From a virus (lineage: Duplodnaviria > Caudoviricetes): a DNA stretch of 52,592 nt. Location of the stretch: IMG/VR virus record IMGVR_UViG_3300010389_000023, positions 1 through 52,592 of that record; one strand, written 5' to 3'. Position numbers and translations under genes: made by a program. Shown in pieces: positions 3,179-51,070 of the stretch. The first letter of the stretch is position 1, and each line of letters begins with the position of its first letter. The notes beneath the pieces were generated by a model. That model was not told the origin of the DNA and did not search any database. It saw only the letters and a list, made by a program, of their open reading frames with translations.

Positions 3179-5683
3179 TTATGCTGGATTTAATGCGATA
3201 GTATATGCTTTCCAAGCATCGTCTCCTGGTGTAGTAAATGCACCAGGATTCTCAGCACCTGCAGTTGATTGGAGTAAGTAAGCAGTCATAATTGTCGCAC
3301 CAGAACCATTATTTGCGCCAGTATCTTCAGTAGGTCCAAGAGTATAACCAGAAGGTGCTGTTGTACCACTTGCGGAGTCATCATCGTCCAAGAATCCCAC
3401 ACTTACAATCATACATCCATCGGTTGTTGTAGTAATGGATGGAGAATTTGGATCTCCGCTGCCTGCAGTGGCTTCTTGAGTTGTTGTATTAAATACGGTT
3501 GTTGTATTTACATTTCTAAACGCCATCATTACATACACTGCGCCAGAGTTTGGATCCGTTAGGTTATTAGCACTTACTGAAGTTCCTGAAGATACGATAT
3601 AGTAGAAGGAGCTATCTGGAACATTATCGTTATCTGGTTGAGCGCCAGTATTATTAGTAGTTCCTTCGCTCCATCCAGTAGGATCAGCTCCCATATTACC
3701 CGAGTCAGTAGCACCAAAAAGAAGAACAACATCACCAGACTGTATGCCTGTTAATGTCATTGTTCCACCAGACTGTGATGTAGTTCCTGTTACATATTCT
3801 ATACCTGATGCGGTTTCAGTTGATAATCCTGCTTGAGATAGTCCGAGAGCAACTGCCTTTGCGTTATAAATTTGTCCGATTTCGGAATGACTGAGTTCTC
3901 TGTTATAAATCAAAACCTTCGCAACTTGACCATCTACATAACCTTCTTCTCCAGCATTAGCACGACCTATGGCAACATTTGTTGACGTTGTAGTATTAAT
4001 GGTTTGAGTTCCAGTATTATAATTCACAAGTTTTTCTGCATTGTGATATAGAGTTATACCTTCAAGATCATTATTTGCTCCTGTACCAATAGTAATGGTA
4101 TTTGTTCCTGTAGTTCCTGATGCTCCTTCTGTGTTTGTATCTGATATTGAGATACTGGAAGAACCACCAGAACTTCCACTATCACCATCTCCACTTCCTC
4201 CGTCTCCACCAGAACCAACGGTTACTGTGTATTGTTGCCCAGCAGATACTGTCCAGCTTCCGTAAGCAAGAGCACCGCCGCCACCGCCACCGCCACCTTC
4301 ATCATCCTTATCGGGGTCATTATCACCACCACCGCCACCACCACCGACTACAACAGCAGAAACAGATGTTACGCCAGAAGGAACTGTGAACGTTCCACTA
4401 GAAGTAAATGTTTGTTGATTTGATATTCCATCTGCTGCATTTGATGGGTACGAATAACTACCCCAAACAAATCTCACAACACCATTTCCACCATCACCAC
4501 CAGAACCAAAACCACCGTCTCCTTCAACGCCGCCACCGCCGCCGCCATAGTTACCACCATCGCCGCCAGTACCATTGGTATTTTGTCCATCAACACCACC
4601 AGAACCGCCACCTCTTGGAGCAGTTCCACTAGAACCAGCTCCATATATTCCTACACCACCACCACCATCACCATCATTAGAACCACCAGCACCACCGCCA
4701 CCAGAACCATTTTGGTTTTCTCCACCACCATTACCAGTATATCCACCAGCTCCAGCGCCACCGCCACCGTCTTCATTTCCACTGCCGCCAGAACCACCAG
4801 ATCCTCCATTAGTCCTCGATAATCCACCAGAAGACCCACCATTACCACCACCACCGCCGCCACCGCTTCCGCCGCCACCGCCTCCAGCAGTTAAGTGGTT
4901 ATTGGTGAAGGTTAAAGTTGTGCCAGATATAGTAGTTGTAAGGTTGTTTGATAGGGTAATAGTTCCTGAAGAGCTATTAAACGCCGTAACTGTTGTGTTG
5001 TTAGGAACTCCTGTTCCAGTGACTACAGTTCCTACCTCAATAAAATCAAAAATGGCATCAGGCGTTCCACCACCCGAACTACCTGGCCAGGTAGCTGAAA
5101 TCATATTCCAACCATTTACTGTGAGAGTTTTTGTTGCTAGTTGAGCACCACCAGCAACTCCCATATTAAACTGATTAGAAGTATTGAGTTCCATTGCCCA
5201 TTTACCACCACTAGTGGCAGGGTCTCCCCAAGTAAGAAGTCTTTGTTGACTTGTAATAGTATTAGAGTCTAGTTTAAAAAATATAATAGATGTTCTTGCT
5301 GTTGTGCCAGTGACTCCATTGTATCCAGACAGGTTTACATAGTCATCAACGCCATCAAATACTAACTTACCAAAGTCACCAGAATTATAAGATGCTCCAT
5401 TTGTAAGTGTTCCGTTTCTATCAAAAGTTCCTATATCTTCAACTCCACCTGTACCAGTGTTACTCTCTGATATTTGTCCATCCCAATGAAGTTGAAGTCC
5501 ACTTGCTGGGACACCATCTGTACCATAAAAATTTGAAAAACTTATGGCACCACTTGTTGGAGCATTATCCTGACCATAATATTCACCAAGTTCCAGTGGA
5601 CCTGCTGTAGTTGGAGCAGTATCTCCACTGAACTCTTGGTGAATAGCTGATAGTGATATTGATCCTGAAGCAGGTAGTGTCAT
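3179..5683 (-). CDS. Gly-rich putative fibre-tip adhesin with LamG/ConA-like domain
   Basis: N-terminal TLPASGSISLS..EF...GAISFSNFYG motif; LamG-like FDGVDDYV and GQVAKVLIYNRELS; long polyglycine tracts; separate C-terminal domain of about 200 aa. Confidence 0.75.
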   Translation of the reverse strand: MTLPASGSISLSAIHQEFSGDTAPTTAGPLELGEYYGQDNAPTSGAISFSNFYGTDGVPASGLQLHWDGQISESNTGTGGVEDIGTFDRNGTLTNGASYNSGDFGKLVFDGVDDYVNLSGYNGVTGTTARTSIIFFKLDSNTITSQQRLLTWGDPATSGGKWAMELNTSNQFNMGVAGGAQLATKTLTVNGWNMISATWPGSSGGGTPDAIFDFIEVGTVVTGTGVPNNTTVTAFNSSSGTITLSNNLTTTISGTTLTFTNNHLTAGGGGGGSGGGGGGGNGGSSGGLSRTNGGSGGSGGSGNEDGGGGAGAGGYTGNGGGENQNGSGGGGAGGSNDGDGGGGVGIYGAGSSGTAPRGGGSGGVDGQNTNGTGGDGGNYGGGGGGVEGDGGFGSGGDGGNGVVRFVWGSYSYPSNAADGISNQQTFTSSGTFTVPSGVTSVSAVVVGGGGGGGDNDPDKDDEGGGGGGGGALAYGSWTVSAGQQYTVTVGSGGDGGSGDGDSGSSGGSSSISISDTNTEGASGTTGTNTITIGTGANNDLEGITLYHNAEKLVNYNTGTQTINTTTSTNVAIGRANAGEEGYVDGQVAKVLIYNRELSHSEIGQIYNAKAVALGLSQAGLSTETASGIEYVTGTTSQSGGTMTLTGIQSGDVVLLFGATDSGNMGADPTGWSEGTTNNTGAQPDNDNVPDSSFYYIVSSGTSVSANNLTDPNSGAVYVMMAFRNVNTTTVFNTTTQEATAGSGDPNSPSITTTTDGCMIVSVGFLDDDDSASGTTAPSGYTLGPTEDTGANNGSGATIMTAYLLQSTAGAENPGAFTTPGDDAWKAYTIALNPA

Positions 5684-5700
5684 AAGTCGTTTCTAACTTA

Positions 5701-5961
5701 TCATGCAGGTTCTTCTTCTGCTGGTGGTTCTTCTACAGCATCTGGATCTACAAAAGAAATTGCACCAATTGCTGCCTTATTCTCAACTCCTCTAAGTTGA
5801 CCTTCGAGAATTTCTTCAAAATAATCCTCATCAATAGAACCATCTTCTAGATGTGGAATGTTGACCGCTCTGGTGTGAGTAAATCCATCAGCATTGGTAT
5901 ATGTAACCTCAACTGTCTTATCTTCTTCAGCATAATCTGCTACTGTGTATGTAATATTCAT
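5701..5961 (-). CDS. Hypothetical acidic protein, possible fibre chaperone/adaptor
   Basis: 86-aa ORF packed between the fibre and the adhesin; function inferred from position only. Confidence 0.7.
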   Translation of the reverse strand: MNITYTVADYAEEDKTVEVTYTNADGFTHTRAVNIPHLEDGSIDEDYFEEILEGQLRGVENKAAIGAISFVDPDAVEEPPAEEEPA

Positions 5962-5965
5962 TATC

Positions 5966-8900
5966 CTATTTTCTAAGTTCAGTAATTTGTTGCTTGAGAC
6001 TATTTATCTGATTTTGTTGCTCTTTAATTGCCTCAATCAATAATCCAACCATATTGCCATAAGCAACAGATTTGATTCCATCTTCATTAGTTTCTACTGC
6101 TTCAGGAAGAACTTCTTCAACCTCTTGGGCAATGACACCAGTGTGGCGCTTATCACTATCCAAATCTGTTCTATCGTAAGTGATGCCTCTAAGTGATTGA
6201 AGTTTATCAAGAGCATTTGGAATAAGTTCAATGTTTTCTTTAAGAGTTATATCCGAATATGCAGTTACATTTCCTGTTGCAGTAAAATCACCTGTAGATC
6301 TTGCAAATGTAAATCTTGTTGTTGTTCCATCTCTCATAAACAATGAACCAACACCAGTGCTGTTCATATCAAAATACATATTCGACCCATTGCAGAACAT
6401 TTCAAAATCATCTCCAGTTCCAAAAGTCTGGATAATATTATCATTGAATCTTAAAGTTCCAGATGTTTTTTGATCAGCAGCATCAGACCTTAAGAACTGA
6501 GAACTATCGACACCATCAAGAGTCCCTGCATTGGTGGCGGTGGCAGCATTGCCAGTGATACTAATACCCCAAGTTCCTGAAGCATTAGCACCAGTTGTAC
6601 TTGGAGCACCAATCGTATTATAAGAAACTGTTAAAGCACTACCTCCATTAAATGTACTGCCAGATGCACCACCACTGCCTCCATTATTAAATGTAACACT
6701 ATTAGAAGTATTAGCAGTAATAGTAATGTTTGCAGAACCATTAAAACTTGTTCCGTTGATGGTTCTTGCGGTTTGTAAAGTAGTTGCTGTAGCAGAATTG
6801 CCAGTGATATTAATACCCCAAGTTCCTGAAGCATTGCCACCAGTTCTTGTGGGGACATCTAATACTGTTCGGAAGTTTGTTGGAGTATAATAACGAATAT
6901 ATCCATCCTGAGAAGCATAAACTCTAGTAATAGCAGTTGTGCCATTATCACCTGAGATTGTATTAATCCAACCTGCTTGAATATATCCATTGCCATCAGT
7001 TCTTACAATTCTATTTGCTACATTGTTTGTTCCTGTATGAACTTGAAGTCCATCAACAGTATCAGCATCTAGACCACTACCAGAACCATCGTTACCAGCG
7101 TGCCATACAATATTAGCATTGCCTGCGTAGATGTTGTTTGAAGCAACTCTTAATTGACCATTAGATTCAATTTGGAATACATTAGTAGTATTATTTTTAA
7201 ATACAAAACCTCTATTAGTTCCTCCAGTCATTCTGAAGTACATATTATAGTCAGAAGTTGAATCTAGTCTTCCACCCCAAGTTGCATTGACCGCAGAGGA
7301 CATCCATATCTTATAACTATCACTATCCCAGAATCTCAAACCGCGACCATCACCCGCAGCAAGTCTTGCATCTACAGAATTTGCAGCATCCGATCTAAAG
7401 AACTGAGTGCTATTAAGACCATCAAGTAAATCAGAATCTGCTGCTTTACCTGTAGTAGATAACTTACCATCTAGAGCAGTTTGGAGACCGTCTACATTAC
7501 TGATGATATGGTTGTGTGAGTCATCTGCAACAACAATAGCATTATAAGTTCCTGATACATCTCCACCAAAACTTGTGGATGTAGTTAGTGCTGTAGATGC
7601 TGGTTGATAATAAGAACTTTGTTGTCCATCAAGTAGGTCGGCATCCAATCCAGAACCAGCTCCTTGATATGAAATTTGTGCTGGGTGAACCATTCCAGTT
7701 CCTTCATATCCAGCATTATCATTCTTTGTCCAGGCAATGCCTGTTAAGTGCAATCTTCCAACTCTATTTAGAATTCTGATAGCAGTAAAATGGTCCAAAC
7801 CACTACCAACATGGGTAATAGACATACCATCATGTTGATCTGGATCACCCTCATTTGTATTTTCTACAGTTTGTCTTGTATTAATCCTTCTTAAAAATAC
7901 CAATCCACCATCAGATTGTACTCCATAACAATCAGCATATCCACCACTGCTCCACTGAAGTTGACTTATCCAACAAGACTTATATCCAGAAGGAATGTTA
8001 TATTGAACATATCCAGAACCATCAACATATCTATATTCATCATAAACATTATTAAACTTGGGATCTCCCCAAGAACTGGTATTTGATGCAGTTGTCCAAG
8101 TTCCAGATACTGCATCTGGAGAGTTGATATTAGTTTCGTAGTAGTTTTGGAGGAATCCAGTCGAATCAATACCATCAAGTAAATTAGAATCTGCTGCTTT
8201 ACCTGTAGTAGATAATTTGCCATCTAATGCTGTTTGGAGACCGTCTACATTACTAATGATATGGTTGTGGGAATCATCGGCAACGGTGGCAGTAATCGTG
8301 ATGTTGGAACTTCCGTTAAAGTTCGCAGAACCACTCAGGTCGCCGCCAAGTGCAATGTTGCGACTGTTGGCAAGAGTAGAGGCAGTTGATGCGTTACCAG
8401 TAATGCTAATGCCCCAAGTTCCCGAAGCATCGCCACCAGTTCTTGTGGGGACATTCAGGGATGATCTCATACCAGTAGCATTATTCTTTCTGATGTAATC
8501 ATCAGTGGATGAGTAAAAGATGGTGTCACTAGAACGAGTTCCAGTGGCGTGAGACATATTAAAGTAAGTTCCAAATCCATATCTTACGGTTAAATCTCCA
8601 GATCCATTTCTCAATGCGATAGTGTTTGCGGTTGCTCCCGTTGCTGTGTTGTATCCATCCAATAAATCAGCATCTAAACCAGATCCAGCACCATCATTAC
8701 CAGCGTGCCAATACTTGGAACCACTATTATCTGCACCGCCTTTCCACAAGTCACCATCTGAACCCATCCAAGCAACAATACCACTAGCACCATTGCCAAA
8801 TCCAACACCTGCAGTTCCAGCATAATAATTCAAGTACATTGCTGATGAAGTAGCGGCATCCATATGAAGATTACCGTTTGTAGTTGCTAAACTTACCGTA

Positions 8901-11900
8901 TTCGCATTACCACCATATCCATTACCTCCAACTCTTAAGTATTTGCCCCAAGTGCTATTAGGTCCGAATAGGATATTTGCGTTTCCGCTGCCAGTTAAGT
9001 TGCCAGTGAAAGTATCATCAGCATCAGACCTTAAGAACTGAGAGCTATCAATTCCATCAAGTAAATTTGAATCTGCTGCTTTGCCTGAAGTAGATAACTT
9101 ACCATCTAGAGCAGTTTGGAGACCGTCTACATTACTGATGATATGGTTGTGAGAATCATCAGCAACAACAATGGCATTATAAGTTCCACTGACATCTCCA
9201 CCAAAGGTTGTGGATGTATTGAGGTAATAAGAACCTTGTTGTCCATCAAGCAGATCGGCATCTAAACCATTGCCAGTTCCTTCATCAGCAGTAGTAAGAA
9301 CCCTAGAAAGAGTCCCAGTTGTTGTTCCTCCAGCATAAATGTTTCCAAGAACCGAAAAAGAAAGAGATCCCGTAGTTGGAAATTGGCTATTATTTGGAGA
9401 TTGTTTTAATATTAATCCATATCCAGAAATAGGAAGTTCGCCATCAAATTCATTATGCTCTAAGAGAACACCTTGACTATTAGCCGTATCAAATTGAATT
9501 GCTGGATAAGATCCAGTAACGGAATCGGTATCGCTAAGAATTAGTTTTGGAGACGTTTTACTAATAGTAATGTTTCCAGTTGTAGTATCACTAGCATCTG
9601 ATCTTAAGAACTGAGAACTATCAAGACCATCAAGTAAATTAGAATCTGCTGCTTTACCTGAAGTAGATAATTTACCATCTAAAGCAGTTTGTAGACCGTC
9701 AACATTACTAATGATGTGGTTATGAGAATCATCGGCAACTACAATGGCATTATAAGTTCCACTAACATCTCCACCGAAACTTGTGGATGTAGTTAATGCT
9801 GTAGATGCTGGTTGGTAATAAGAACCTTGTTGACCATCAAGTAAGTCAGCATCTAAACCAGATCCAGCACCATCATTACCAGCGTGCCAAACAGTATTTC
9901 CTAAGCATGTTGCCCCACTTTCACTCATAGTAAATAAATTATCTAACCCTACAGCAACACCAGAAGTAACATTAGATTTTCCTTCAAACCAAATAGTTGC
10001 TCCTGTTGTAGAGTCAACATTTGTCTCTATCCTAAATGCATTACCTGTTTTATCTGGGACACCACTACGGTGATTAAATGTTAGATTTGCATTCCCATAA
10101 CCATCATTTGTGGTCATTACCACACCACCACCATCACCTGTGATTCCTATATAAGTGCCTGAGGTAAGAATATTACCTGACCCTGTTAAAGTTCCGCTAA
10201 AACTATCATCAACATCAGATCTTAAGAAGCTGCCGCTATCAATTCCATCCAGAAGATTAGAGTCTGCTGCTTTACCTGAAGTAGATAATTTACCATTTAA
10301 AGCAGTTTGTAGACCGTCAACATTACTAATGATGTGGTTATGAGAATCATCAGCAACAACAATGGCATTATAAGTTCCTGATACATCTCCACCAAATGTA
10401 GTTGATGTAGTTAGTGCGGTGGAAGCAGGTTGGTAATAAGAACCTTGTTGTCCGTCAAGTAAATCAGCATCTAGACCAGATCCAGCACCATCATTACCAG
10501 CGTGCCAAGTAGTATTACCACTAATAGTCGCTGCAACCTGACGCCAAGTCTGTTCTGTACCATTCTCACAAGTTCTAATCCATAGATTACCTGGAGCTCC
10601 ACCTTGAGAATACCTTGGAATGGCCATCTCCATCCAATAATCGCTAACGTCAGATCCTAATCCATATTGATTTCCTAGAGAAAATCTTCCCCTGTACCAT
10701 TGAATGGAACTGGTATTTGGTGCATTTGTAGTTCCATTTAAAAAAGTCCATCCCCAATATGTTGGAGGAACATTAAAATCATTATAGGCAGTGTGACCTT
10801 CCCATTGTCCAAAATTGCCTACAGGGGATCTCCCAAGTTCAGTATAACTTAATCTCGCGTCATTTAGTGTTCCTGCATTAATATTTGATGCATTATGATT
10901 GTGTGAATTATCAGCAACAACAATTGCATTATAAGTTCCTGATACATCACCACCGAATTGAGTAGTAGTTGATAGCTTTGTAGCAAGAGAGTTTGTAACT
11001 GTGGTAGCAAAATTAGGATCGTCTCCCAATGCTGCTGCCAATTCATTTAATGTATCAAGTGTAGTAGGTGCAGAATCTACAAGATTTGCTACCGCAGTTC
11101 CAACAAAAGCAGTGGTGGCAATCTGTGTTGTATTAGTTCCAGCAGCAGCAGTTGGTGCAGTTGGAGTTCCTGTAAGAGCAGGTGATGCTAAAGGTGCTTT
11201 AGCATCTAGTGCTGTTTGAAGTCCATCAACATTGCTAATAATGTGATTGTGAGAATCATCCGCAATCACAATAGCATTATAAGTTCCAGATACATCACCA
11301 CCAAAAGTTGTATTTGTATAGAGACCATTAGTTACAGTGGCAGCATTACCAGTAATATTAATACCCCAAGTTCCTGAAGCATTACCACCAGTTCTTGTAG
11401 GAACATTTAAGAAAGTTCTAATTGCTCCAGTATCACTACATACTCTCAGGTAATTATCCGTTGAGTTATTAGTTCTAAAGACCATACCACCAGAAATGGT
11501 TGATTGATTGGGGTATGTTTGTCTAATTAATCGCGCATAGATATCTCCAGCTCCATCTCTTCCAGCTACAGTATTTGCTGTTGCTGCACTATTAACTAAA
11601 TTTTGTCCATCAAGTAAATCAGCATCTAAACCAGATCCAGATCCATCGTTTCCTGCGTGCCAGACAGTATTGCCATGAACCTGAAGACTAGCCGTTCCAG
11701 TTGTTCTTTGAAAGTTTAAAATAGAACTAGTTGCAGTTACATCAATATACGCTGCTCCGTCGTAGTAAGCATGTCTGAAATTAGAAGTAGCACCAGTATC
11801 TGATACTCCGAACCAATGCAATCTTGAAAAATTTGTTGCATCGTCTCTTGCGTCAGCTCTTTGATAAGCAGCGTCCGAAGAGCTTACTTGCCATCCTTCA

Positions 11901-14900
11901 GCGCCAAGATGCATGGCGGCAACTCCAGAGTTTGTAAAGGTTAACTGTGTTCCTGTATAACTATCAGAAGCATCAGACCTTAAGAACTGAGTACTATCAA
12001 TACCATCAAGTAAATTGGAATCTGCTGCTTTACCTGTAGTAGATAATTTACCATCTAGAGCAGTTTGAAGTCCATCAACATTACTAATAATGTGGTTGTG
12101 TGAGTCATCAGCAACTACGATGGCATTATAAGTTCCAGAAACATCTCCACCAAATGTAGTTGATGTATTGAGGTAATAAGAACCTTGCTGTCCATCGAGT
12201 AAGTCAGCATCTAAACCACTACCAGCACCATCGTTTCCTGCGTGCCAGACTGTGTTTGATCCTACTGTTGGAGTAAACCCAAATCTAAATACACCTGCTT
12301 GAGTAACATCAAAAACAGAATCTGCTCTAATTCCAGATCCACCTGTTAAACCATTACGAAGTAAACCGAAATTATTTGTACCATTTTGCCCAAGATTACC
12401 AATTGCCCAAGTATTTGTACTGCTAGTTAAAGTTGCGCTTGTTCTAAAAAATGCAAGAGCATAACCATTATCTGCGGAAGGATGCACTGCAAGTCCTTCG
12501 GACCAACTACTTCCTCCAGATCTTATTCTTACCGCAGGAGTTGCTGAGGAACCACCTAAGAAGTCAATAACTCCATTAGCAGTATCACTGGCGTTAGACC
12601 TTAAGAAACTTGTGGAATCAAGACCATCAAGTAATTCAGAATCTGCTGCTTTACCTGTAGTAGATAACTTACCATCTAATGCTGTTTGGAGTCCATCAAC
12701 ATTACCGATGATATGGTTATGGGAATCATCAGCAACTACAATGGCATTATAAGTTCCTGATACATCTCCACCGAAACTTGTGGATGTATTGAGGTAATAA
12801 GAACCTTGCTGCCCATCAAGTAAATCTGCATCTAACCCAGACCCAGCGCCATCGTTTCCTGCGTGCCAGACTGTGTTTCCATTTGCTGCAGTTATTGAAC
12901 CATATACATTTAGATTTCCACTGGTTGTAAATTCAAACTGTATGCTACTATTAGTTCCGCCTGTATGGGATTCAAATGAAGGTAGAGAATTGCTAGCATT
13001 TCCCCAAATATAAAGATTGTTGGGGGCATCATGAGCACCAATTCCCCAGAAAACATCATTGTCAACATCATCAAATTGTATCTTGGGATTGTTTGTGCCG
13101 TTTCCAAAACCTAAGTTTAATCTTCCACTATTACTTGCTCCAGAATTAGATCTAATACTCAATCCAGTTGTTGTATTTCCACAGTCAATCGTAACAGTCC
13201 CGTTAATATCTAAGACTCCAGTAAATGTATCACTGGTATCAGACCTTAAGAACTGAGAACTATCGATTCCATCAAGTAAATTAGAATCTGCTGCTTTACC
13301 TGTTGTAGATAATTTACCATCTAAAGCAGTTTGTAGACCGTCTACATTACTGATGATGTGGTTGTGGGAATCGTCAGCAACTACAATTGCATTATAAGTT
13401 CCTGATACATCTCCACCAAATGTTGTGGATGTAGTTAGTGCGGTGGAAGCAGGTTGGTAATAAGAACCTTGCTGTCCATCAAGTAAATCAGCATCTAATC
13501 CAGAACCAGATCCATCATTACCAGCGTGCCATATAGTATAAGTAGTAGCTAAATTTCCACCATATATGTCACTTCCCGTTCTCCAAGATAACCCAGAAAT
13601 TCCTCTTTCAATAGAAAGACCATAGTCTGCAGTTGCCGAAGATCCTGCTGCTCTTTGAGGTCCAACATAAAGATGAATACTTCCATCAGTATTGTCGGAA
13701 CTTAAAGTAATAGCAGACATGCCACTATTACCAGAAGAAGAACTTACATGAAGTTGATCATTATCATGACCTGCACGAATATTAAAATTACCAGCAGCAT
13801 CATTTGATGTAATCATCTTCTGACCTTCATCAAATTTCAATAACACTTCATCATGAGATACTGAAATATATCCAGCAGTTAAGTTAAAAGTTGGAGTATC
13901 TGAAATGTCACTTCCCCCACCAGAGAAAGTATAAGTCCCAGAAGCACTATCATTAGCATCGGACCTTAAGAAACTTGCGGAATCAAGACCATCAAGTAAT
14001 TCAGAATCTGCTGCTTTACCTGTAGTAGATAACTTACCATCTAATGCTGTTTGGAGACCGTCTACATTACCGATGATATGGTTATGAGAATCATCAGCAA
14101 CAACAATGGCATTATAAGTTCCTGATACATCACCACCAAATTGAGTAGTAGTTGATAACTTACTATCCAAAGAAGTTTGAAGTCCATCTATATTACTGAT
14201 GATATGGTTGTGAGAATCATCAGCAACAACAATGGCATTATAAGTTCCACTGACATCTCCACCAAATGTTGTGGATGTAGTTAGTGCTGTAGATGCTGGT
14301 TGGTAATAAGAACCTTGCTGTCCATCAAGTAAGTCAGCATCTAGACCACTTCCAGATCCATCGTTTCCTGCATTCCATACTGTGTTTCCACCAACAGTTA
14401 ATACACTGTTGGTCAGTCTCATCATTTCTGTCGTCCCACCATACCATCTGTGTATAGAAGATGTACCTGGAACAGAATACCAAAGTGTACCGCTGTCAAT
14501 ACCTAATGCATAATCGACATTAGAAGCACTGACTTGAGGATATAAGACTAACTTAGTACCAACACTTCTGGTGGTGGTTGATGGAGCAGCAACACCATTT
14601 GTGGTCCAATCTATTCTATTGCCAGTAGCTCCATTCAGAAAGATTTGACCACCACCATTAGCAGTGCTATTTGCTTTCGTGAATATTATCTGACCACTAG
14701 TAGTATCATTAGCATCAGACCTTAAGAAACTTGTACTATCAATTCCATCGAGTAAATTAGAATCTGCTGCTTTACCTGTTATAGATAACTTACCATCTAA
14801 TGCAGTTTGTAGACCATCTACATTACTAATAATATGGTTATGGGAATCGTCAGCAACCACAATAGCATTGTAAGTACCAGATACATCTCCACCGAATTGA

Positions 14901-17233
14901 GTAGTAGTTGATAACTTACTATCCAAAGCAGTTTGTAGACCGTCTACATTACTGATGATGTGATTGTGGGAATCATCAGCAACTACGATGGCATTATAAG
15001 TTCCTGATACATCTCCACCAAATGTAGTTGATGTATTGAGGTAATAAGCACCTTGCTGTCCATCAAGTAAATCTGCATCTAAACCAGATCCAGCGCCATC
15101 GTTACCAGCGTTCCAAACAACATTTCCTGCGATAGTTACATTATTTACTCCACTACCCGTAACATTAATACCGCCAGTTGTTGCGCCACCACCAAAGATT
15201 CTTGTAATTCCACTATTTCCATTTCCATATCCAAGATACATTCCATCTGCCCAACTGCCACTAGAATTTGTATTTCTAATTACTCGCATTGCAGCATAAT
15301 TATCATTTGTCGCCAAATCAATAGCATTAGTTGCACCAGACAAAGCACCAGTCAGTGTGCCAGTAAAAGTATCAGCAGCATCAGACCTTAAGAAACTTGT
15401 GGAATCAATTCCATCGAGTAAATTAGAATCTGCTGCTTTACCTGTTATAGATAACTTGCCATCTAATGCTGTTTGAAGACCGTCTACGTTACTAATAATA
15501 TGGTTGTGGGAATCGTCAGCAACTACAATTGCATTATAAGTTCCAGAAACATCACCACCAAATGTAGTTGATGTAGTTAGTGCTGTAGATGCTGGTTGAT
15601 AATAAGAACCTTCTTGACCATCAAGCAAATCAGCATCTAGACCACTACCGACACCATCGACAGTTTTAATGGCAGTAAGAATTTCAGATGCAGTTTGATC
15701 TGCAGTTGCACCAGATTCAATGCCATCTAGTTTAGCACCATCAGCAGATAAATCACGACCATCTACAGTTTGAGTACCAGAAAATGTAATGTTACCTGTC
15801 ATCTGACCACCAGACAACGACAACTTTCCATCTAAAGCAGTTTGAAGTCCATCTACATTACTAATAATATGGTTATGAGAATCATCAGCAACTACAATGG
15901 CATTATAAGTTCCAGATACATCTCCACCAAATGTAGTGGAAGTGTTTAAGTAATACGAACCTTCTTGACCATCTAAGGTATCAGCATCTAAACCGTTTCC
16001 AGATCCTTCATCTGCAGTTGTTAACAGTCTATTTGCATTGTAATATGGTGCTTTATTAAATACCCACTTATCTCCGCTAGAAGCATAAGTTAATGTAGCA
16101 CTTGCTCCATCAATAGTAATTCCGCCCCCATCTGCAGCTGCCGCATTAGCAGCACCAGAAGCAAGTACTACATTTTTATCGTCGATGGTAACTGTAGTTG
16201 AATTTACAGTTGTAGTTGTTCCATCAATTTGAAGATCACCTTTAATTACAACAAGACCAGTATTGTCTCCAACTGCTGCTGGATCAATAGTTAATGTTGC
16301 TGGTCCACTGATGGTATCTGTTGAGACATTAATGCCAGTACCAGAAGCACCTGTGGAAAGTATAGTTGCTAATGCAGTTCCATTTACTTCAAGTTTCTGA
16401 GTTGGAGATGTGGTGTTTATACCAACATTACCCGCAAAATAGTTAGTAGAATCTGACCAACCAGAATAAATACCATAATTGTTTGTAATAGTAAGTCCAG
16501 TTGAATTACTTGGTGCAGTTAATTTTAATCCATAGTAGTTTGTGATTGTTGCGTTTAATGTTCCTGCTGATCCGCCTGTTCCCCAGAATGAACTAGTTTC
16601 AAATGCTGAATAATTAGTGATGTTATAGTTATGTGTTCCAGCATAAAAGTTACGGAACGATATGTTTATAAGTTTGCCTCTGGCATTTGTAATATTAATC
16701 GTGTCAGTTCCAGTTACAGACTGACCTATAAAAAGAAAATCTTCTGAATTTGCAGTAGTAACTGTTTGTGTGCCGCCTTCGGGTGGTGATAATGTTAACC
16801 TTTGTGCGTTAAGAGAACTTGATGTTCTTCCATTTGCATTAATACCCGAGTAGACAAAATTATCGTCTATGCTTACATATTGCTTACACGTATTTAAGTC
16901 AGTCCAATTAAAATTTTGGGTTATACCAGCAAAATATAATCTTTCAATATCTGAAGTATTTCCTGCACTTTTTGTGAGAGTATTTGTAATTCCTGATACA
17001 AAATTAAACCCACCTGGAGTTGAAGCATCTATTGTTTGAGATGTTCCCATCTCAATATTTTGATTAAATGCAGCAGCAACATTAAAACTGGCAGTTGTTG
17101 GATATATTTTACTTTCAGTACTAGTTACTGACAATCCACCAACAACATTTAATACGCTGTCTGGTAATTTATCAGTCTTACTTTTAATGCCGACATCAAA
17201 AGTTCTTACTCTATTCGAAAGATATTTTGTCAT
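5966..17233 (-). CDS. Giant modular tail fibre (3755 aa) with C-terminal peptidase S74 intramolecular chaperone
   Basis: C-terminal YSDITLKENI...GVIAQEVEEVLPEAV...YGNMVGLLIEAIKE plus coiled coil (S74/ICA signature); repeated GLDADLLDG, DDSHNH and FLRSD fibre motifs. Confidence 0.92.
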   Translation of the reverse strand: MTKYLSNRVRTFDVGIKSKTDKLPDSVLNVVGGLSVTSTESKIYPTTASFNVAAAFNQNIEMGTSQTIDASTPGGFNFVSGITNTLTKSAGNTSDIERLYFAGITQNFNWTDLNTCKQYVSIDDNFVYSGINANGRTSSSLNAQRLTLSPPEGGTQTVTTANSEDFLFIGQSVTGTDTINITNARGKLINISFRNFYAGTHNYNITNYSAFETSSFWGTGGSAGTLNATITNYYGLKLTAPSNSTGLTITNNYGIYSGWSDSTNYFAGNVGINTTSPTQKLEVNGTALATILSTGASGTGINVSTDTISGPATLTIDPAAVGDNTGLVVIKGDLQIDGTTTTVNSTTVTIDDKNVVLASGAANAAAADGGGITIDGASATLTYASSGDKWVFNKAPYYNANRLLTTADEGSGNGLDADTLDGQEGSYYLNTSTTFGGDVSGTYNAIVVADDSHNHIISNVDGLQTALDGKLSLSGGQMTGNITFSGTQTVDGRDLSADGAKLDGIESGATADQTASEILTAIKTVDGVGSGLDADLLDGQEGSYYQPASTALTTSTTFGGDVSGTYNAIVVADDSHNHIISNVDGLQTALDGKLSITGKAADSNLLDGIDSTSFLRSDAADTFTGTLTGALSGATNAIDLATNDNYAAMRVIRNTNSSGSWADGMYLGYGNGNSGITRIFGGGATTGGINVTGSGVNNVTIAGNVVWNAGNDGAGSGLDADLLDGQQGAYYLNTSTTFGGDVSGTYNAIVVADDSHNHIISNVDGLQTALDSKLSTTTQFGGDVSGTYNAIVVADDSHNHIISNVDGLQTALDGKLSITGKAADSNLLDGIDSTSFLRSDANDTTSGQIIFTKANSTANGGGQIFLNGATGNRIDWTTNGVAAPSTTTRSVGTKLVLYPQVSASNVDYALGIDSGTLWYSVPGTSSIHRWYGGTTEMMRLTNSVLTVGGNTVWNAGNDGSGSGLDADLLDGQQGSYYQPASTALTTSTTFGGDVSGTYNAIVVADDSHNHIISNIDGLQTSLDSKLSTTTQFGGDVSGTYNAIVVADDSHNHIIGNVDGLQTALDGKLSTTGKAADSELLDGLDSASFLRSDANDSASGTYTFSGGGSDISDTPTFNLTAGYISVSHDEVLLKFDEGQKMITSNDAAGNFNIRAGHDNDQLHVSSSSGNSGMSAITLSSDNTDGSIHLYVGPQRAAGSSATADYGLSIERGISGLSWRTGSDIYGGNLATTYTIWHAGNDGSGSGLDADLLDGQQGSYYQPASTALTTSTTFGGDVSGTYNAIVVADDSHNHIISNVDGLQTALDGKLSTTGKAADSNLLDGIDSSQFLRSDTSDTFTGVLDINGTVTIDCGNTTTGLSIRSNSGASNSGRLNLGFGNGTNNPKIQFDDVDNDVFWGIGAHDAPNNLYIWGNASNSLPSFESHTGGTNSSIQFEFTTSGNLNVYGSITAANGNTVWHAGNDGAGSGLDADLLDGQQGSYYLNTSTSFGGDVSGTYNAIVVADDSHNHIIGNVDGLQTALDGKLSTTGKAADSELLDGLDSTSFLRSNASDTANGVIDFLGGSSATPAVRIRSGGSSWSEGLAVHPSADNGYALAFFRTSATLTSSTNTWAIGNLGQNGTNNFGLLRNGLTGGSGIRADSVFDVTQAGVFRFGFTPTVGSNTVWHAGNDGAGSGLDADLLDGQQGSYYLNTSTTFGGDVSGTYNAIVVADDSHNHIISNVDGLQTALDGKLSTTGKAADSNLLDGIDSTQFLRSDASDSYTGTQLTFTNSGVAAMHLGAEGWQVSSSDAAYQRADARDDATNFSRLHWFGVSDTGATSNFRHAYYDGAAYIDVTATSSILNFQRTTGTASLQVHGNTVWHAGNDGSGSGLDADLLDGQNLVNSAATANTVAGRDGAGDIYARLIRQTYPNQSTISGGMVFRTNNSTDNYLRVCSDTGAIRTFLNVPTRTGGNASGTWGINITGNAATVTNGLYTNTTFGGDVSGTYNAIVIADDSHNHIISNVDGLQTALDAKAPLASPALTGTPTAPTAAAGTNTTQIATTAFVGTAVANLVDSAPTTLDTLNELAAALGDDPNFATTVTNSLATKLSTTTQFGGDVSGTYNAIVVADNSHNHNASNINAGTLNDARLSYTELGRSPVGNFGQWEGHTAYNDFNVPPTYWGWTFLNGTTNAPNTSSIQWYRGRFSLGNQYGLGSDVSDYWMEMAIPRYSQGGAPGNLWIRTCENGTEQTWRQVAATISGNTTWHAGNDGAGSGLDADLLDGQQGSYYQPASTALTTSTTFGGDVSGTYNAIVVADDSHNHIISNVDGLQTALNGKLSTSGKAADSNLLDGIDSGSFLRSDVDDSFSGTLTGSGNILTSGTYIGITGDGGGVVMTTNDGYGNANLTFNHRSGVPDKTGNAFRIETNVDSTTGATIWFEGKSNVTSGVAVGLDNLFTMSESGATCLGNTVWHAGNDGAGSGLDADLLDGQQGSYYQPASTALTTSTSFGGDVSGTYNAIVVADDSHNHIISNVDGLQTALDGKLSTSGKAADSNLLDGLDSSQFLRSDASDTTTGNITISKTSPKLILSDTDSVTGSYPAIQFDTANSQGVLLEHNEFDGELPISGYGLILKQSPNNSQFPTTGSLSFSVLGNIYAGGTTTGTLSRVLTTADEGTGNGLDADLLDGQQGSYYLNTSTTFGGDVSGTYNAIVVADDSHNHIISNVDGLQTALDGKLSTSGKAADSNLLDGIDSSQFLRSDADDTFTGNLTGSGNANILFGPNSTWGKYLRVGGNGYGGNANTVSLATTNGNLHMDAATSSAMYLNYYAGTAGVGFGNGASGIVAWMGSDGDLWKGGADNSGSKYWHAGNDGAGSGLDADLLDGYNTATGATANTIALRNGSGDLTVRYGFGTYFNMSHATGTRSSDTIFYSSTDDYIRKNNATGMRSSLNVPTRTGGDASGTWGISITGNASTASTLANSRNIALGGDLSGSANFNGSSNITITATVADDSHNHIISNVDGLQTALDGKLSTTGKAADSNLLDGIDSTGFLQNYYETNINSPDAVSGTWTTASNTSSWGDPKFNNVYDEYRYVDGSGYVQYNIPSGYKSCWISQLQWSSGGYADCYGVQSDGGLVFLRRINTRQTVENTNEGDPDQHDGMSITHVGSGLDHFTAIRILNRVGRLHLTGIAWTKNDNAGYEGTGMVHPAQISYQGAGSGLDADLLDGQQSSYYQPASTALTTSTSFGGDVSGTYNAIVVADDSHNHIISNVDGLQTALDGKLSTTGKAADSDLLDGLNSTQFFRSDAANSVDARLAAGDGRGLRFWDSDSYKIWMSSAVNATWGGRLDSTSDYNMYFRMTGGTNRGFVFKNNTTNVFQIESNGQLRVASNNIYAGNANIVWHAGNDGSGSGLDADTVDGLQVHTGTNNVANRIVRTDGNGYIQAGWINTISGDNGTTAITRVYASQDGYIRYYTPTNFRTVLDVPTRTGGNASGTWGINITGNSATATTLQTARTINGTSFNGSANITITANTSNSVTFNNGGSGGASGSTFNGGSALTVSYNTIGAPSTTGANASGTWGISITGNAATATNAGTLDGVDSSQFLRSDAADQKTSGTLRFNDNIIQTFGTGDDFEMFCNGSNMYFDMNSTGVGSLFMRDGTTTRFTFARSTGDFTATGNVTAYSDITLKENIELIPNALDKLQSLRGITYDRTDLDSDKRHTGVIAQEVEEVLPEAVETNEDGIKSVAYGNMVGLLIEAIKEQQNQINSLKQQITELRK
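6001..6008 (-). promoter_or_regulatory. Possible late promoter (GATAAATA) inside the fibre 3' end
   Basis: 7/8 match about 40 nt upstream of the ATG at 5961. Confidence 0.4.
6540..11405 (-). repeat. Second fibre repeat family (VPTRTGG[ND]ASGTWGI[NS]ITGN), 4 copies
   Basis: Copies near 6545-6595 (partial), 6795-6860, 8395-8455 and 11345-11405; shared DNA core CCCCAAGTTCC[TC]GAAGCAT. Confidence 0.9.
7390..16030 (-). repeat. Dispersed intragenic repeat of about 130-310 nt, 16 copies of the SHNH core
   Basis: SHNH-encoding cores near 7510, 8262, 9145, 9718, 10336, 10897, 11245, 12094, 12715, 13360, 14080, 14206, 14836, 14961, 15502 and 15871; nearly invariant peptide FGGDVSGTYNAIVVADDSHNHIISNVDGLQTALDGKLS. 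Confidence 0.95.
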
Positions 17234-17234
17234 T

Positions 17235-17567
17235 TTAGTTAAGTGTTTCTAAGATAGAGATTACGGCTTTTAGATCTGTACTATCACTCCCAGATAATAC
17301 TAGTTGATCTCCAGTCTCCAAAAATAATTTACCATCAATCAAATTTGTAGCATCATTTGGCGGAATTGGAAACCCACTTACAATTTCAGTGTCAGTTCCA
17401 CTTCTTCTATGTTTTAAAGTTATTGTTCTTAATGTAGACGTGCTAATGTTTGAAATATTCACATACAATACAACTCCAGTATATGCTACGGGTGCTGTGT
17501 AAATAACTGTGTCTGATGTATTTACTGTGGGTGTTACCGTCTGGTAAATATTAATTTTTAATGCCAT
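17235..17567 (-). CDS. Small virion/fibre-associated beta-rich protein
   Basis: 110 aa; IYTAP..YTGVVL...N, GKLFLETGDQL..S....LK..ISILE pattern; tightly coupled between two fibre genes. Confidence 0.75.
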   Translation of the reverse strand: MALKINIYQTVTPTVNTSDTVIYTAPVAYTGVVLYVNISNISTSTLRTITLKHRRSGTDTEIVSGFPIPPNDATNLIDGKLFLETGDQLVLSGSDSTDLKAVISILETLN

Positions 17568-17570
17568 GGG

Positions 17571-20500
17571 TTATCCTCCTAGTGCAATAATATATGGCGT
17601 TACTTGAGCTAACAAACTTTGCGAATAAGATTGTCCAGAAACTGTACCAGTTGCCTGATCAATGGAAACCCCATCACCAATATTAAAATTACCAGATTCG
17701 TTTGTACTAGTATATATTACTAGTCCACCATCCTTACTTACGGCTTCATTTCCTGGTATTGGAATTCCTCCAGTTTGAGGTAAAGCAGTATTGATAGAAG
17801 TGCCAGAACCAATATATTGGAACGATTGACCACTTGCAAGTAATCTACTTTGCTTGAAAAAATATCCAACACTACCAGTAGTTAATGCAATAGGAACTTC
17901 ATTTGAAAATGTTACATCATATTCATCAGTTGCCACTTCAAATGCAGATTCGACTATAAAATATGATGGTTTCAATACAGCAGTTGCAGTAGCAGTAGTT
18001 CCAGAAGATGGAGCACTAATCGTTATTGTTGGTGGAGTGACACCATAACCTCTACCCGACGAAGTAACTTCTATTGAAGTTATTATTCCAGTGCTTGATA
18101 TATTAGCAACGGCTTGTGCAGTAATTCCCCAACTCTCTGGAGAATTTGTAATAGTAATATTTGGTGGATTGTTTGAATCATATCCACTCCCGCTATTAGT
18201 AACTACAAATTTATCTACTTCATAATATAAACTATCAAAATACACAACTTGCCCTGCATAAGGTCTCAAAATATTTATTTCTGCTGTTCCACCTGAAACA
18301 TAAGTGTGAGCAATGGTAGATGTTCCTACATTGACCGTAAACTGAGTTGCAGAAGGAGTGCTTAATACCCTGAAGACATATCCGTAGTTACCAGATGGAA
18401 ATACACCTGTTCCACTAGGAGAAGTGCAGCTAAATGTTAAATTCTGAAGTTTGACATCCATCCCAACCTGGAATCCATGTGCGTTAGAAGTTGTTACAGT
18501 TAAAACTCCAGTTGTGTTTACATAAGTAGCAGCACTAACAGTTTTTTGAGGTGTTGATATATCAACTCTTACTGTATCTGCACCAGCAGTTGTTGTCGCA
18601 GACACAGAACCCGTATATTTTAAACTACTTACGCCATCTGCAAGCAGTCCAAAATTACCAAAAGAAGAGTTAGAATTTGTTAGATCACATCCACCACCAG
18701 ATAAGCATTCTACTGATTTATGATTACATATAGTATATAATGAAACTAACTGGGCATATCCTTCATTTGAAATTTTTGCTCCAGTTCCATTTGAATTAAA
18801 TTGTGTATAAGAATCAACAACCATAGACTTAATATCACCAATAGCATTGGCGCCATTTATATCAAGACCAATACTATCAGTAATAAAATTGGTACAATTC
18901 TGAATATATGGAGATTGATTAATAAATGGAGGATCTGAAGGATCAAATGCTACTGTTGCTCCTGTACTTGAAGACGAAGAGTTGAAAGACAAATCAGAAA
19001 TATAACAACCGTTATTTACATAAAATATATCTGTATTTAAATTTTGAGGAATTACAGTAACTTCTCTCAGGGATGTTCCAACAATAGAAGTTTGTGCTGG
19101 CATTACCAAAGGATTGTTTTCTGTATATTCTCCTGGTTGAACTTTGATAACAGTTCCTGCAGTAGCTGCTGCAAGTGCTGACTTAATTGTTAGTTTTGGA
19201 TCTCTCAAAGAATTGCCATCATTACTATCACTTCCATCTTTACTAACATATAAAATATTAGTTTCAGTGATTGATGGTACTGCTGACCATTCTATAGTCC
19301 TTACGCCACTTACATCTTTACTTATAAGAACTTGATTATTAGTTCCACCACCACCAGTATTATCTAATAATGCACCATCAAACCGAATACTACCAGAGGT
19401 ATCAATTGTATGATCTGCTGAAATAGTTCTGTTTATTGATGTATGCACATATTGAGCATGATCGTCATCCGCAAGACCAGATAGAACTCCGTGATCAGTA
19501 ATGACCACTTCTCTGCCGCCTATAAGAGCAGTAAAATTAGATGTTCTTAAATCTTCATATTCAACTAATCTTGTTTTTCTCGCATTGGTATAACTATCAC
19601 TTGTTTGGTAAATAAGTTTATATAATACTCTTAAATCTCTAATTGGTGTTTGATCTGGTTCTATAAAGTTACCAAAATCATATGCTTGGAAAGATGCTGC
19701 CTTTGCTTCAGCAAAAGTTGCATATTCATCTTGACCCAGTAATGAAATAATAGGATTATTAGGATCTGATGTCGCAACAATATACATCACACCATAATAA
19801 TTATTAGTTATTTCTGTTGTTGACCAAGTTCCAGTTACTGATGAGTTATATACCATCCTCCCATTAGTAACATTTTTAATTGGAAATGTAGTTGCAGTAT
19901 CAATTACCCAAGGACCATCTGTTGTTGGTGTCGTTCCTGTGTCTTGTCCAGATCTATACATAACGGGAATAGATCCTGGATTATTAATATCTCCAAGAGA
20001 TTGCTCAAACGGATTTGCTGGAGTTGCATCCGCAACAATAGTAATTTCTAGGTCTTCATTGAAAAAAGTTCCACCTGCCATTCCAATTTGAGCATGTTGA
20101 TCTAGAGATCCATTCTGATCTTCAAAATCATAAAGGATATTAAATCCTTTATATACAACAGCTCCTCTAGTTTTATGAAGATACTCGTGAGTTGCCCAAT
20201 CTAAAACAATTCCATGTCTCGTATCATATACAAATGGTGCAACACTAGTCAATGCATTCCAAAATAATATCGCTACTGGAGTTTCACTCTCCCATACAAC
20301 ATCGGTTGCTGATGATTTATTTTGAAGAACTCCGTCTTGATCAAAATAGATATAATATAATCCAGTGGTGTTTGGAATTGTAGTGGTTTGTGCAGAGGTG
20401 AAAGCAAACCGAATACTTTTGCACCAGACATCAAATCTAGTTGCTACTGGGGCAATACTGAATACCCTAGTAGCATTGCTAAATGAAATAGTACTTTGAG

Positions 20501-50050: not shown

Positions 50051-50067
50051 CAGTTAGTGTAGAGAAA

Positions 50068-50256: not shown

Positions 50257-50328
50257 GCTGTGTGGGGTGTGTTGTCTTGAGGTAGTATAGAGGCAAGGGG
50301 GGCAGCAGAGACCCCCCTAGTGTGCGGT

Positions 50329-50598: not shown

Positions 50599-50636
50599 GT
50601 CGTTGTGTTTGTTTGGTATGTGAAAATTCTACAGGG

Positions 50637-50807: not shown

Positions 50808-50849
50808 CGGTTCGTTTGTGTGTTGAGAGTATCCTAGACGGTCTGCCGC

Positions 50850-51020: not shown

Positions 51021-51070
51021 GAGACTAGTATGGCAGGGATGGGGGCAGAAATCAAGCGATAGTGGACAGT

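Follow-up and report, generated by a model that had tools for sequence, protein, structure and literature searches.

A giant tail fibre gene of a T4-like cyanomyovirus as a probable modular mosaic of bead domains and constrained spacers

Introduction

A single gene at positions 5966-17233 (minus strand) of IMG/VR virus record IMGVR_UViG_3300010389_000023 raises the question of what keeps one part of a protein almost constant while the parts that alternate with it differ. The gene is one open reading frame (ORF) of 11,268 nt, predicted to encode a tail fibre protein of 3755 amino acids (aa; protein P0001), in which a constant block recurs between variable segments. The record, all 52,592 bases of which were analysed and are here called the window, is classed as linear and estimated to be 27% complete. 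An earlier note on this DNA had proposed that the blocks are handles for homologous recombination, by which knob domains are added, deleted or swapped to diversify host range. The analysis described here places the emphasis elsewhere: the gene is probably a modular mosaic tail fibre, shaped by ordinary homologous recombination and gene conversion at short junction motifs and held under strong purifying selection.

Organisation of the fibre gene

The fibre protein scored above the Pfam gathering thresholds for PTR (PF12789; 93.1 bits, cut-off 27) and, at its C-terminus, for Peptidase_S74 (57.4 bits, cut-off 22; aa 3660-3713, window positions 6095-6256). The sequence AYSDITLKENIE was read at the start of the Peptidase_S74 domain and is presumably the S74 autocleavage motif (conserved Ser with a Lys partner). 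In PHROGs, 24 families matched the gene, mostly tail fibre families, with 'tail fiber protein proximal subunit' at E 4e-72.

The constant block joins a GLDADxLDG turn, a single or double PTR repeat with HxH (DDSHNH) at its centre and a KAADSxLLDGxDSxxFLRSD motif. Motif counts in the fibre were 14 for GLDAD, 16 for D[DN]SHNH, 11 for KAADS, 12 for F[LF][RQ][SN] and 10 for [HN]AGNDG; GLDAD, HxH and KAADS motifs were absent from all 7 other large ORFs in the window. Each chain has 16 HxH motifs, of which 15 read DDSHNH, within PTR-scoring repeats, and a 40-aa core was counted in 15 copies. Eight full simple blocks start at aa 527, 1241, 1462, 1669, 2249, 2455, 2652 and 3191; the constant block described in the earlier note is thus real, at a length of 85 or 91 aa instead of about 100. 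Two blocks (aa 713-839 and 959-1091) contain an internal duplication of a 42-aa PTR/HxH module, detected by Tandem Repeats Finder as a 126-nt period with 85% matches at 14022-14267 and 14784-15023, and four blocks are partial or composite. The alternation within one frame was borne out, and all 12 variable segments located previously fell within about 25 nt of the re-derived boundaries. A CRISPR-like 'repeat-spacer' reading was ruled out, the array being one translated frame of protein repeats. The parts of the gene, from N-terminus to C-terminus, are as follows.

16022..17233 (-): N-terminal region, aa 1-404; first ~32 aa and TLTIDPAAVGDNTG module common to the syntenic orthologue
15818..16006 (-): partial block with A and B modules only, aa 410-472
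15383..15655 (-): constant block aa 527-617, QPASTALT form
15098..15382 (-): bead V618-712; closest outside homologue P0002, 78%
14717..15097 (-): constant block aa 713-839, 42-aa PTR/HxH module duplicated
14360..14716 (-): bead V840-958; closest outside homologue P0016, 67%
13961..14359 (-): constant block aa 959-1091, PTR/HxH module duplicated
13514..13960 (-): bead V1092-1240; closest outside P0007 88%, P0005 79%, P0003 78%
13241..13513 (-): constant block aa 1241-1331
12851..13240 (-): bead V1332-1461; closest outside P0003 83%, P0005 82%; unit modelled as a trimer
12596..12850 (-): constant block aa 1462-1546, LN form
12230..12595 (-): bead V1547-1668; closest outside P0009 80%, P0019 78%
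11975..12229 (-): constant block aa 1669-1753, LN form
11645..11974 (-): bead V1754-1863; closest outside P0095, 52% (the exception)
10877..11644 (-): composite aa 1864-2119; GLDAD, insert X1877-1975, PTR/HxH module, APLASPALTGTPTAPT-type module, second HxH (DNSHNH)
10490..10876 (-): bead X2120-2248; closest outside P0002 91%, P0006 88%
10217..10489 (-): constant block aa 2249-2339
9872..10216 (-): bead V2340-2454; closest outside P0025 and P0029, 69%
9599..9871 (-): constant block aa 2455-2545
9281..9598 (-): bead V2546-2651; closest outside P0016, 79%
9026..9280 (-): constant block aa 2652-2736, LN form
8693..9025 (-): bead V2737-2847; closest outside P0002 85%, P0003 78%
8144..8692 (-): composite aa 2848-3030; GLDAD, insert X2861-2980, partial HxH module, KAADS..FLQN junction
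7664..8143 (-): bead V3031-3190; closest outside P0030, 75%
7391..7663 (-): constant block aa 3191-3281
7088..7390 (-): bead V3282-3382; closest outside P0012 and P0021, 81%; L005 contig family, 84%
6485..7087 (-): composite aa 3383-3583; GLDAD, insert X3396-3560, LDGVDSSQFLRS junction
5969..6484 (-): distal tip and intramolecular chaperone, Peptidase_S74; P0003 71%, P0083 68%

The TLTIDPAAVGDNTG module is a widespread fibre module and occupies aa ~300-404 of the N-terminal region. Inside the first composite stretch, a DUF1842 Pfam match (39.7 bits, cut-off 23) was recorded at 11195-11344 (aa 1964-2013), running from the last part of insert X1877 into the PTR/HxH module after it.

Divergence and mosaicism of the constant blocks

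The blocks were almost identical as protein and differed mostly at third codon positions, in agreement with the earlier description. Thirteen compared copies of the 40-aa core were 88-100% identical in protein and 80-92% in DNA; for the 22-aa C module (11 copies) the ranges were 68-100% and 68-97%. Of 273 columns compared across the 8 full blocks, 88 were variable, with 19, 9 and 60 of them at codon positions 1, 2 and 3. Over the 28 pairs of these blocks, the proportions of synonymous and nonsynonymous differences (pS and pN) were 0.435 and 0.056, the synonymous divergence (dS) was 0.67 and the ratio of nonsynonymous to synonymous divergence (dN/dS) about 0.09; the copies are under very strong purifying selection. 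At codons for the same amino acid, the DNA identity of the core was 0.881 (range 0.833-0.937), against 0.79 (standard deviation 0.032) for random synonymous choice drawn from the gene's own synonymous codon usage. Block DNA identity stands ~44% of the distance between synonymous saturation and full identity; the copies are thus neither freshly duplicated nor homogenised by frequent exchange.

Mosaicism was tested by a Sawyer-type permutation of site order (2000 shuffles per data set), with observed values below followed in brackets by the shuffled expectation and the number of shuffles that reached the observed value.

8 full blocks, all sites: sum of squared fragments 5429 (4320±207; 1/2000); longest fragment 18 sites (12.3; 39/2000)
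8 full blocks, silent sites: sum of squared fragments 3337 (2625±146; 0/2000); longest fragment 18 sites (10.7; 10/2000)
13 core copies, all sites: sum of squared fragments 10170 (8059±414; 0/2000); longest fragment 23 sites (14.7; 15/2000)
13 core copies, silent sites: sum of squared fragments 6684 (5343±278; 1/2000); longest fragment 22 sites (13.4; 3/2000)

The per-copy test for a mosaic of single-nucleotide polymorphisms (SNPs), proposed in the earlier note, was therefore positive, the sum of squared fragments being reached by 0-1 of 2000 shuffles in every data set. Exact DNA repeats of at least 20 nt formed 179 pairs, the longest of which (78, 75, 63, 54 and 54 nt) join non-adjacent copies, and the LN/QPASTALT indel occurs with the N-I and E-L variants of the C module in all four combinations. 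A few variants are thus reused in shuffled combinations, as had been noticed. Because the permutation tests, the long exact repeats and the four combinations agree, the block copies are concluded to have swapped patches by gene conversion or recombination.

Such patches, and the exact repeats of 54-78 nt that link copies not next to each other, are also what would be seen if the blocks were maintained as handles, through which actively and frequently rearranging cassettes swap receptor-binding knobs for host range. The synonymous divergence between blocks argues against frequent homogenising exchange of that sort, and further evidence on this reading is given with the block and bead homologues below.

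The same data bear on a third possibility, in which third-position differences have been selected to lower DNA identity and so shield a repetitive essential gene from deletions through unequal crossing-over. Recombination is very frequent in T4-like phages, and the excess of protein over DNA identity, with 60 of 88 variable sites in third position, is in keeping with recoding. Runs of identity, however, were longer, not shorter, than site shuffling predicts, and a DNA identity well over that of free synonymous choice fits drift with conversion. Recoding against recombination is considered highly improbable.

Occurrence of the block in other proteins

The 96-aa block was searched with phmmer against 1.84 billion cluster representatives and gave 5369 matches at E<=1e-3, 1647 at <=1e-10 and 236 at <=1e-30. 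The whole composite was found elsewhere as a single copy, in P0205 (92%, query 9-94) and P0222 (85%, query 25-96); P0124 and P0126 carry the PTR core as tandem arrays, and P0004 has a related DDSHNH repeat. The 40-aa core was present in 40 of 252 other proteins compared. Identity to a fibre core copy was at least 90% in 19 of the 252, and complete in 2. Near-identity of the core is therefore a property of the module, and not evidence of anything special in this gene. Since block protein identity is equally high in unrelated genes, no selection for handles need be invoked. The long middle of the block looks like a gene-specific insert between two LLDG motifs; other giant fibres repeat insert types of their own, and P0002 carries several LNYNNLSNKPTIP-type linkers.

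The C module KAADSNLLDGIDSSQFLRSD was aligned with KAADTNLLDGLDSSQFIRRD of T4 gp34 (phmmer, PDB 5NXH/5NXF, E 0.015-0.024). By our own estimate from construct numbering, the aligned segment may lie at or near the triple-helical neck before the triple beta-helix; the sections consulted of the gp34 report describe a tight triple helix with turns leading into a triple beta-helix (Granell et al., 2017, PMC5537660). Seven iron ions are coordinated by HxH motifs in the tip of T4 gp37, and such motifs are found again in fibres of marine phages, according to excerpts of PMC11705849 (citing Bartual 2010 and Bonnain 2016). An ESM Atlas search returned just unnamed viral clusters and weak leads to Phage_fiber_rpt and gp37_trimer, and no description of this architecture was found in the open-access literature searched.

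The bead domains

The variable segments had been described as mutually dissimilar, which was not upheld. End-to-end alignments at 25-33% identity were obtained for most pairs (E 1e-5 to 1e-12, 16-sequence database), for example V1332 and V3282 (33% over 108 aa, E 3e-10) or V2340 and V2737 (29% over 130 aa, E 7e-12). They begin with DxxDxxxG after FLRS and finish with GNxVWHAGNDG. The segments thus appear to be diverged paralogues of one family of bead domains. A second family of inserts (aa 1877-1975, 2861-2980 and 3396-3560) is 45-53% alike.

A unit made of the C module, bead V1332 and the next GLDAD was modelled in three copies. The trimer prediction gave an ipSAE of 0.84 in the best run and a median of 0.84, against 0.00 for the best control, with a partner pLDDT of 77 or more and at least 92% of contacts common to the runs. 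In calibration the mark was reached by 20 of 30 proteins solved as one-chain pairs and by 1 of 23 solved as single chains, counts which apply to the trimer roughly, as the calibration used two copies and its own alignments. Solved fibres of similar kind exist, and the pass may partly reflect likeness to them. In the model, residues 19-20 and 146-148 contact their own copies across chains, and the invariant Phe of FLRS (19) and the Trp of VWHAGNDG (147) each meet their own copies on the axis. Many interchain contacts show the i/i+6 stagger expected of a triple beta-helix, and residues ~105-121 are mostly not listed in the interface.

The bead unit is accordingly modelled as a heavily intertwined homotrimer, and the beads look like integral trimeric fibre domains with structural ends and middles free to vary. 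The proposal that they are receptor-binding knobs fits poorly with an intertwined fibre that has its junction residues on the axis, and the motif preceding each bead matches a shaft protein, T4 gp34. No evidence ties any bead to a receptor.

Sharing of beads among giant fibres

A search confined to proteins of 2065-6572 aa returned 357 with shared modules. Because many of these carry 8-16 GLDAD and 4-10 WHAGNDG motifs, beads on a string with these junctions are a common architecture. In the cultured cyanophage S-TIM66, two such units are present in a virion protein of 1848 aa, at whose C-terminus an S74-type chaperone sequence was recognised by eye.

The closest homologue of a bead outside the gene was 52-91% identical in amino acids (at least 64% for 11 of 12 beads), against 25-33% within the gene itself. 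The closest partner varied by bead (P0002, P0003, P0005, P0007, P0009, P0016, P0025/29, P0030 and P0012/21). A comparison of cassette order, suggested in the earlier note, found shared beads in different orders in several proteins: V1092, V2737, V1332 in P0003; X2120, X1877, V2340 in P0006; V840, V2546, V2340 in P0016; X1877, V2737, V3282, X2861 in the L005 family; the order differs in P0025/29 too. P0005 is collinear with the fibre gene and keeps the V1092-V1332 adjacency with a 22-aa linker. P0002 is collinear for five scored beads, with a APLASPALTGTPT-type module, matched by eye, out of order. The DNA of shared beads was 71-80% identical, and the exchanges are therefore not recent; no recent swap was seen.

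Linkers were surveyed before 47 close bead homologues in other proteins (at least 60% identity and at least 70% coverage). The composite of HxH and KAADS preceded 0 of the 47; 14 had a minimal 20-aa linker, in which GLDADxLDG is fused directly to xxSxxFLRSD, 5 had HxH only, 1 had KAAD only and 27 had other linkers. What different genes have in common is only the short junction at each bead end. Searching the variable segments singly, proposed in the earlier note to see whether the same block flanks them elsewhere, thus returned no close homologue behind this block. The idea of the blocks as handles is retained in so far as recombination left mosaics in and around conserved parts; the ~90-aa block is not a shared handle.

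The position of the fibre in related genomes was also compared. A search with the neighbouring genes gave 7 loci and a single syntenic orthologue, L056, with a neighbour ORF 69% identical. Its fibre, cut off at 1151 aa where the contig ends, has the first 32 aa (69%) and the TLTIDPAAVGDNTG module in common with the gene; the rest is unrelated, with no GLDAD in the 1151 aa. Synechococcus phage S-WAM2 has the same gene order and an unrelated 3219-aa 'tail fiber protein' at the fibre position. The fibre locus is hyperplastic. Megablast of the fibre gene against 50,697 phage records gave no match. The N-terminal 404 aa found 43 loci among viral contigs, all matching aa ~204-404 alone, with no orthologue among them; the N-terminal 300 aa gave 82 pattern matches in metagenome contigs, with no relative among them. 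Bead V1332 found 2 loci among viral contigs, each matching the terminal motif alone.

Beads held in common with other phages in other orders, and a locus in which L056 keeps ~32 aa and one module while the S-WAM2 fibre is unrelated, would suit a set of cassettes exchanged through handles, for which T-even adhesins offer a precedent: crossovers in conserved motifs alter specificity there, as stated in the part consulted of Trojet et al. (2011, PMC3157838). The absence of this block before all 47 close homologues and the 71-80% DNA identity of shared beads speak against such a system, as does the lack of a dedicated enzyme or site in the window, about 27% of the genome, in which 23 ORFs were compared with PHROGs and 10 with Pfam. 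Blocks maintained as handles for active, frequent swapping of receptor-binding knobs are judged unlikely, and a modular mosaic built at short junctions is preferred.

Two side observations concern the giant fibres themselves. A fibre of 4342-4387 aa occurs in five viral contigs (L005, L006, L007, L010 and L011; about 4,600-17,850 per locus), with long collagen-like GTQ arrays and five V3282-like beads behind minimal linkers; its length varies by 3-45 codons between contigs. P0002 (aa ~2150-2771) and the L005 fibre (aa ~3596-4345) read nearly the same over their last ~600-750 aa and differ in their N-terminal two thirds, that is, a shared distal end on different shafts.

Assembly support

The bead order rests on one metagenomic assembly, and the frame or the order could be a chimera of the fibre genes of several phages, joined through the repeats. 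The record is a metagenomic viral contig estimated to be 27% complete, and joins within blocks would remain in frame. Among 24 public runs listed, none held half of the sampled words (best share 0.24). Logan contigs of four runs (X1, X5, X8 and X9, from four studies) were compared at 90% likeness and show the region as short contigs alone, the listed pieces being at most 561 nt long. None of the pieces listed runs from a bead through a whole block into the next bead, and the depth of related beads in those runs differs greatly. Pieces ended near blocks or junctions at 7047-7115, 9889-9901, 11665, 12190, 13487, 13938-13955 and 15058-15369, and cover was almost nil over 16275-18500; no inference was drawn from either, and piece ends can stem from cross-mapping between repeat copies or other phages.

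Several results run counter to a chimera. No exact repeat exceeds 78 nt and just 5 pairs are of 54 nt or more, so that larger k-mers or read pairs can resolve the copies, and GC content is even along the gene (0.38-0.40). Contigs of run X1 cover V1332 and V1092 with both junctions (12762-13298 and 13476-14036) at 0-3 differences; X1 may be the source sample, and this support is not independent. Comparable genes recur in independent assemblies, namely the 357 giant proteins and the 4342-4387-aa fibre in five contigs. An artefact of assembly is regarded as very unlikely.

Genome context

The window's large ORFs are nearly all on the minus strand and make up a T4-type structural module.

341-2890: sheath stabiliser, head closure and head-tail adaptor; T4-type genes
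33151-34968, 44446-46242, 46242-46637: baseplate wedge subunits; T4-type genes

The gp6 homologue shared 87% identity with that of Synechococcus phage S-B43; the figure was 84% for S-WAM2 and 83% for S-RSM4, and each of these phages is a T4-like cyanomyovirus. Two of the isolate records examined for gp6 matches are filed under Kyanoviridae, S-B43 among the family. A Kyano_Gp96 Pfam domain was found at 51443-51805 (-). Because of the T4-type neighbour ORFs, the gp6 likeness and the Kyano_Gp96 domain, the window is assigned to a T4-like Synechococcus cyanomyovirus (Kyanoviridae), a marine or freshwater cyanophage, of which it is a fragment.

S-B43 is not syntenic with the window beyond gp6 (L063, MN018232.1 129000-178000): downstream of gp6 and the first giant structural gene it has small non-structural genes, not gp8 and the fibre block, and its order there differs from both the window and S-WAM2. 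Giant structural ORFs of 2692 and 3138 aa at 24975-33053 and 35025-44441 (-) match phrog_358 and phrog_4406 or baseplate-wedge families and are without any fibre motifs. Downstream of the fibre, an 834-aa ORF at 3179-5683 (-) has a Gly_rich_2 Pfam domain, a local GC content of 0.44, a 15-nt tandem repeat at 4845-4885 and a PHROGs match to 'tail fiber assembly' (E 9e-14). GC content climbs to 0.535 at 50001-52592, against 0.31-0.44 across the remaining window; this end holds the Kyano_Gp96 ORF and overlapping opposite-strand ORFs without family.

No tRNA was found in the window. Neither a recombinase, an invertase nor a reverse transcriptase was seen among the 23 ORFs compared with PHROGs or the 10 compared with Pfam, in a window of about 27% of the genome. 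A diversity-generating retroelement was rejected because these ORFs include no reverse transcriptase and the differences are spread over synonymous third positions. Invertible segments or shufflons (Mu G, P1 C, R64) were rejected as well: the copies are all direct and in one frame, no recombinase was seen in the window, and an inverted-repeat scan of it gave just 17 weak pairs (19-32 nt, 70-90% complementary), none convincing.

Discussion

The gene would encode a very long homotrimeric tail fibre, in which the constant block is a fibrous spacer built from widespread fibre modules. Strong structural constraint would keep the block protein almost invariant, in unrelated phages too. At the DNA level the block has gone about half of the way to synonymous saturation by drift, and intragenic gene conversion would now and then have patched it into a mosaic of third-position variants. 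The bead set would have come together over evolutionary time as phage fibre genes recombined with one another, through ordinary homology or microhomology, at short junction motifs, a mosaic mode known for tail fibres. The analysis shows the anatomy of the fibre, the signature of selection, the mosaic and the sharing of beads in other orders and behind other linkers, and it predicts an intertwined trimer; the recombination mechanism is what we propose. No new mechanism is revealed, and the architecture is an unusually regular case of a known modular mosaic trimeric fibre.

Several points weigh against this explanation, or limit it. Nearly every linker here is the same composite, while relatives mix linker types, so that constraint alone is insufficient and either spread by conversion or serial duplication is needed: the uniform insert may have spread by conversion through the flanking junctions, or units may have been duplicated serially and their beads replaced later. 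Uniform linkers are the one feature that the explanation reaches by inference alone. The mosaic within the blocks and exact repeats as long as 78 nt show that blocks can recombine with each other, and the rates may exceed those inferred. A close relative of the gene was not found in the collections searched. An AlphaFold2 monomer of the bead unit, based on an 11-row paralogue alignment, was poor (pLDDT 56.5, pTM 0.24); the match to gp34 is limited to a short motif with a marginal E of 0.015; metal binding by the HxH sites of the block is suggested by analogy; and the beads, taken as mainly shaft elements, have outer loops that may or may not bind a host surface.

A close precedent is the T-even adhesins, in which recombination between conserved motifs of gp37/gp38 swaps variable segments (Tetart et al. 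1996, 1998, as cited in the portion consulted of Trojet et al., 2011, PMC3157838). As in those fibres and adhesins, conserved motifs and variable segments share one frame in a T4-like tail fibre, and exchange falls in or near the motifs; here the blocks are mosaic, and beads are shared with only the junction motifs in common. Judged by those excerpts, the systems differ in that the variable parts there are short loops of a monomeric adhesin, whereas here they are 12 or more whole trimeric beads of ~100-160 aa; the conserved spacer is a ~90-aa composite, and any role in host range would be putative. The recombinase-free diversification system of the earlier note amounts to general homologous recombination, already described for T-even fibres in the same source and observed in a cyanomyophage gene (PMC6224464). 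The mechanism put forward in the note was right in kind, recombination at conserved sequence shuffling domains, and wrong in emphasis: the long block is a spacer under structural constraint and not the shared handle, and there is no indication of an active system dedicated to host range.

Likeness to T4 gp34 (PDB 5NXH/5NXF) lies in the KAAD.NLLDG.DSSQF.R.D motif, the form KAAD..LLDG.DS..F.R.D of which was found in 11 copies in the fibre gene, and in the PHROGs match to the proximal subunit; gp34 is an intertwined trimeric fibre of repeated small domains and beta-structure, in the sections seen of its report, and the fibre here is predicted to be one. The fibre here differs in being a single chain with its own S74 end, another N-terminus and many more repeats. 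An orthologue of gp34 was ruled out by that end, by a PDB match confined to the motif and by the lack of gp35-37 among the 23 ORFs scanned. With the PTR/HxH fibres (PF12789; the T4 gp37 tip and marine fibres) the gene shares HxH inside PTR repeats, as far as PMC11705849 was consulted; here single or double PTR units are spaced between beads, not in tandem, and metal binding would be by analogy.

Evidence from other phages is of the same kind. Gene fragments are swapped between fibre loci, which causes difficulty in cyanomyoviruses, and the fibre genes of that group are long, repetitive and have been hard to identify by homology, in the passages used of Sullivan et al. (2005, PMC1079782). A direct precedent for the synonymous mosaic comes from evolved populations of S-TIM4, where 15 synonymous SNPs arose within 120 bp of a structural gene (2235 aa); these match genome stretches upstream and downstream, and at least two recombination events were proposed by the authors, according to excerpts of Enav et al. 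(2018, PMC6224464). That gene, ORF108 (YadA-domain), is likewise a giant cyanomyovirus structural protein with synonymous clusters explained by recombination; it belongs to another gene family and was followed in laboratory evolution, whereas exchange here is inferred from a single sequence. Domain mosaicism has been quantified in phage receptor-binding proteins, where homologous domains are shared between otherwise unrelated fibres from different phage groups, in the text seen of Smug et al. (2023, PMC10684548). The present gene differs in its regular alternation with one gene-specific linker type. The criterion of at least 70% identity given there would class several beads here (75-91%) as 'recently emerged', though their DNA is 71-80% identical.

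A multivalent fibre of the 'Swiss-army' kind, in which several beads bind different host ligands through exposed middle loops, and uniform iron-stapled spacers set their spacing and preserve sufficient patches of DNA identity that co-infecting cyanophages swap, duplicate or lose beads at an appreciable rate, is quite unlikely. If it were true, bead content would track host range in natural populations. Were each HxH to form a trimeric metal site as in T4 gp37, up to 16 ions would be held per fibre, and the 16 HxH motifs per chain bear on the proposal, as put forward in the part consulted of PMC11705849, that marine phage tails bind iron.

The range of cyanobacteria open to infection by a cyanophage is set by its tail fibres, and this gene gives an unusually clean view of how such a fibre is constructed. 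A junction 'grammar', …GNxVWHAGNDGxGSGLDADxLDG… and …LDGxDSxxFLRSD…, strings about a dozen beads, permits exchange between phages, and also permits a spacer with a presumed metal site to stand between beads. This grammar could aid the annotation of hundreds of metagenomic giant fibres and the location of recombination breakpoints within them.

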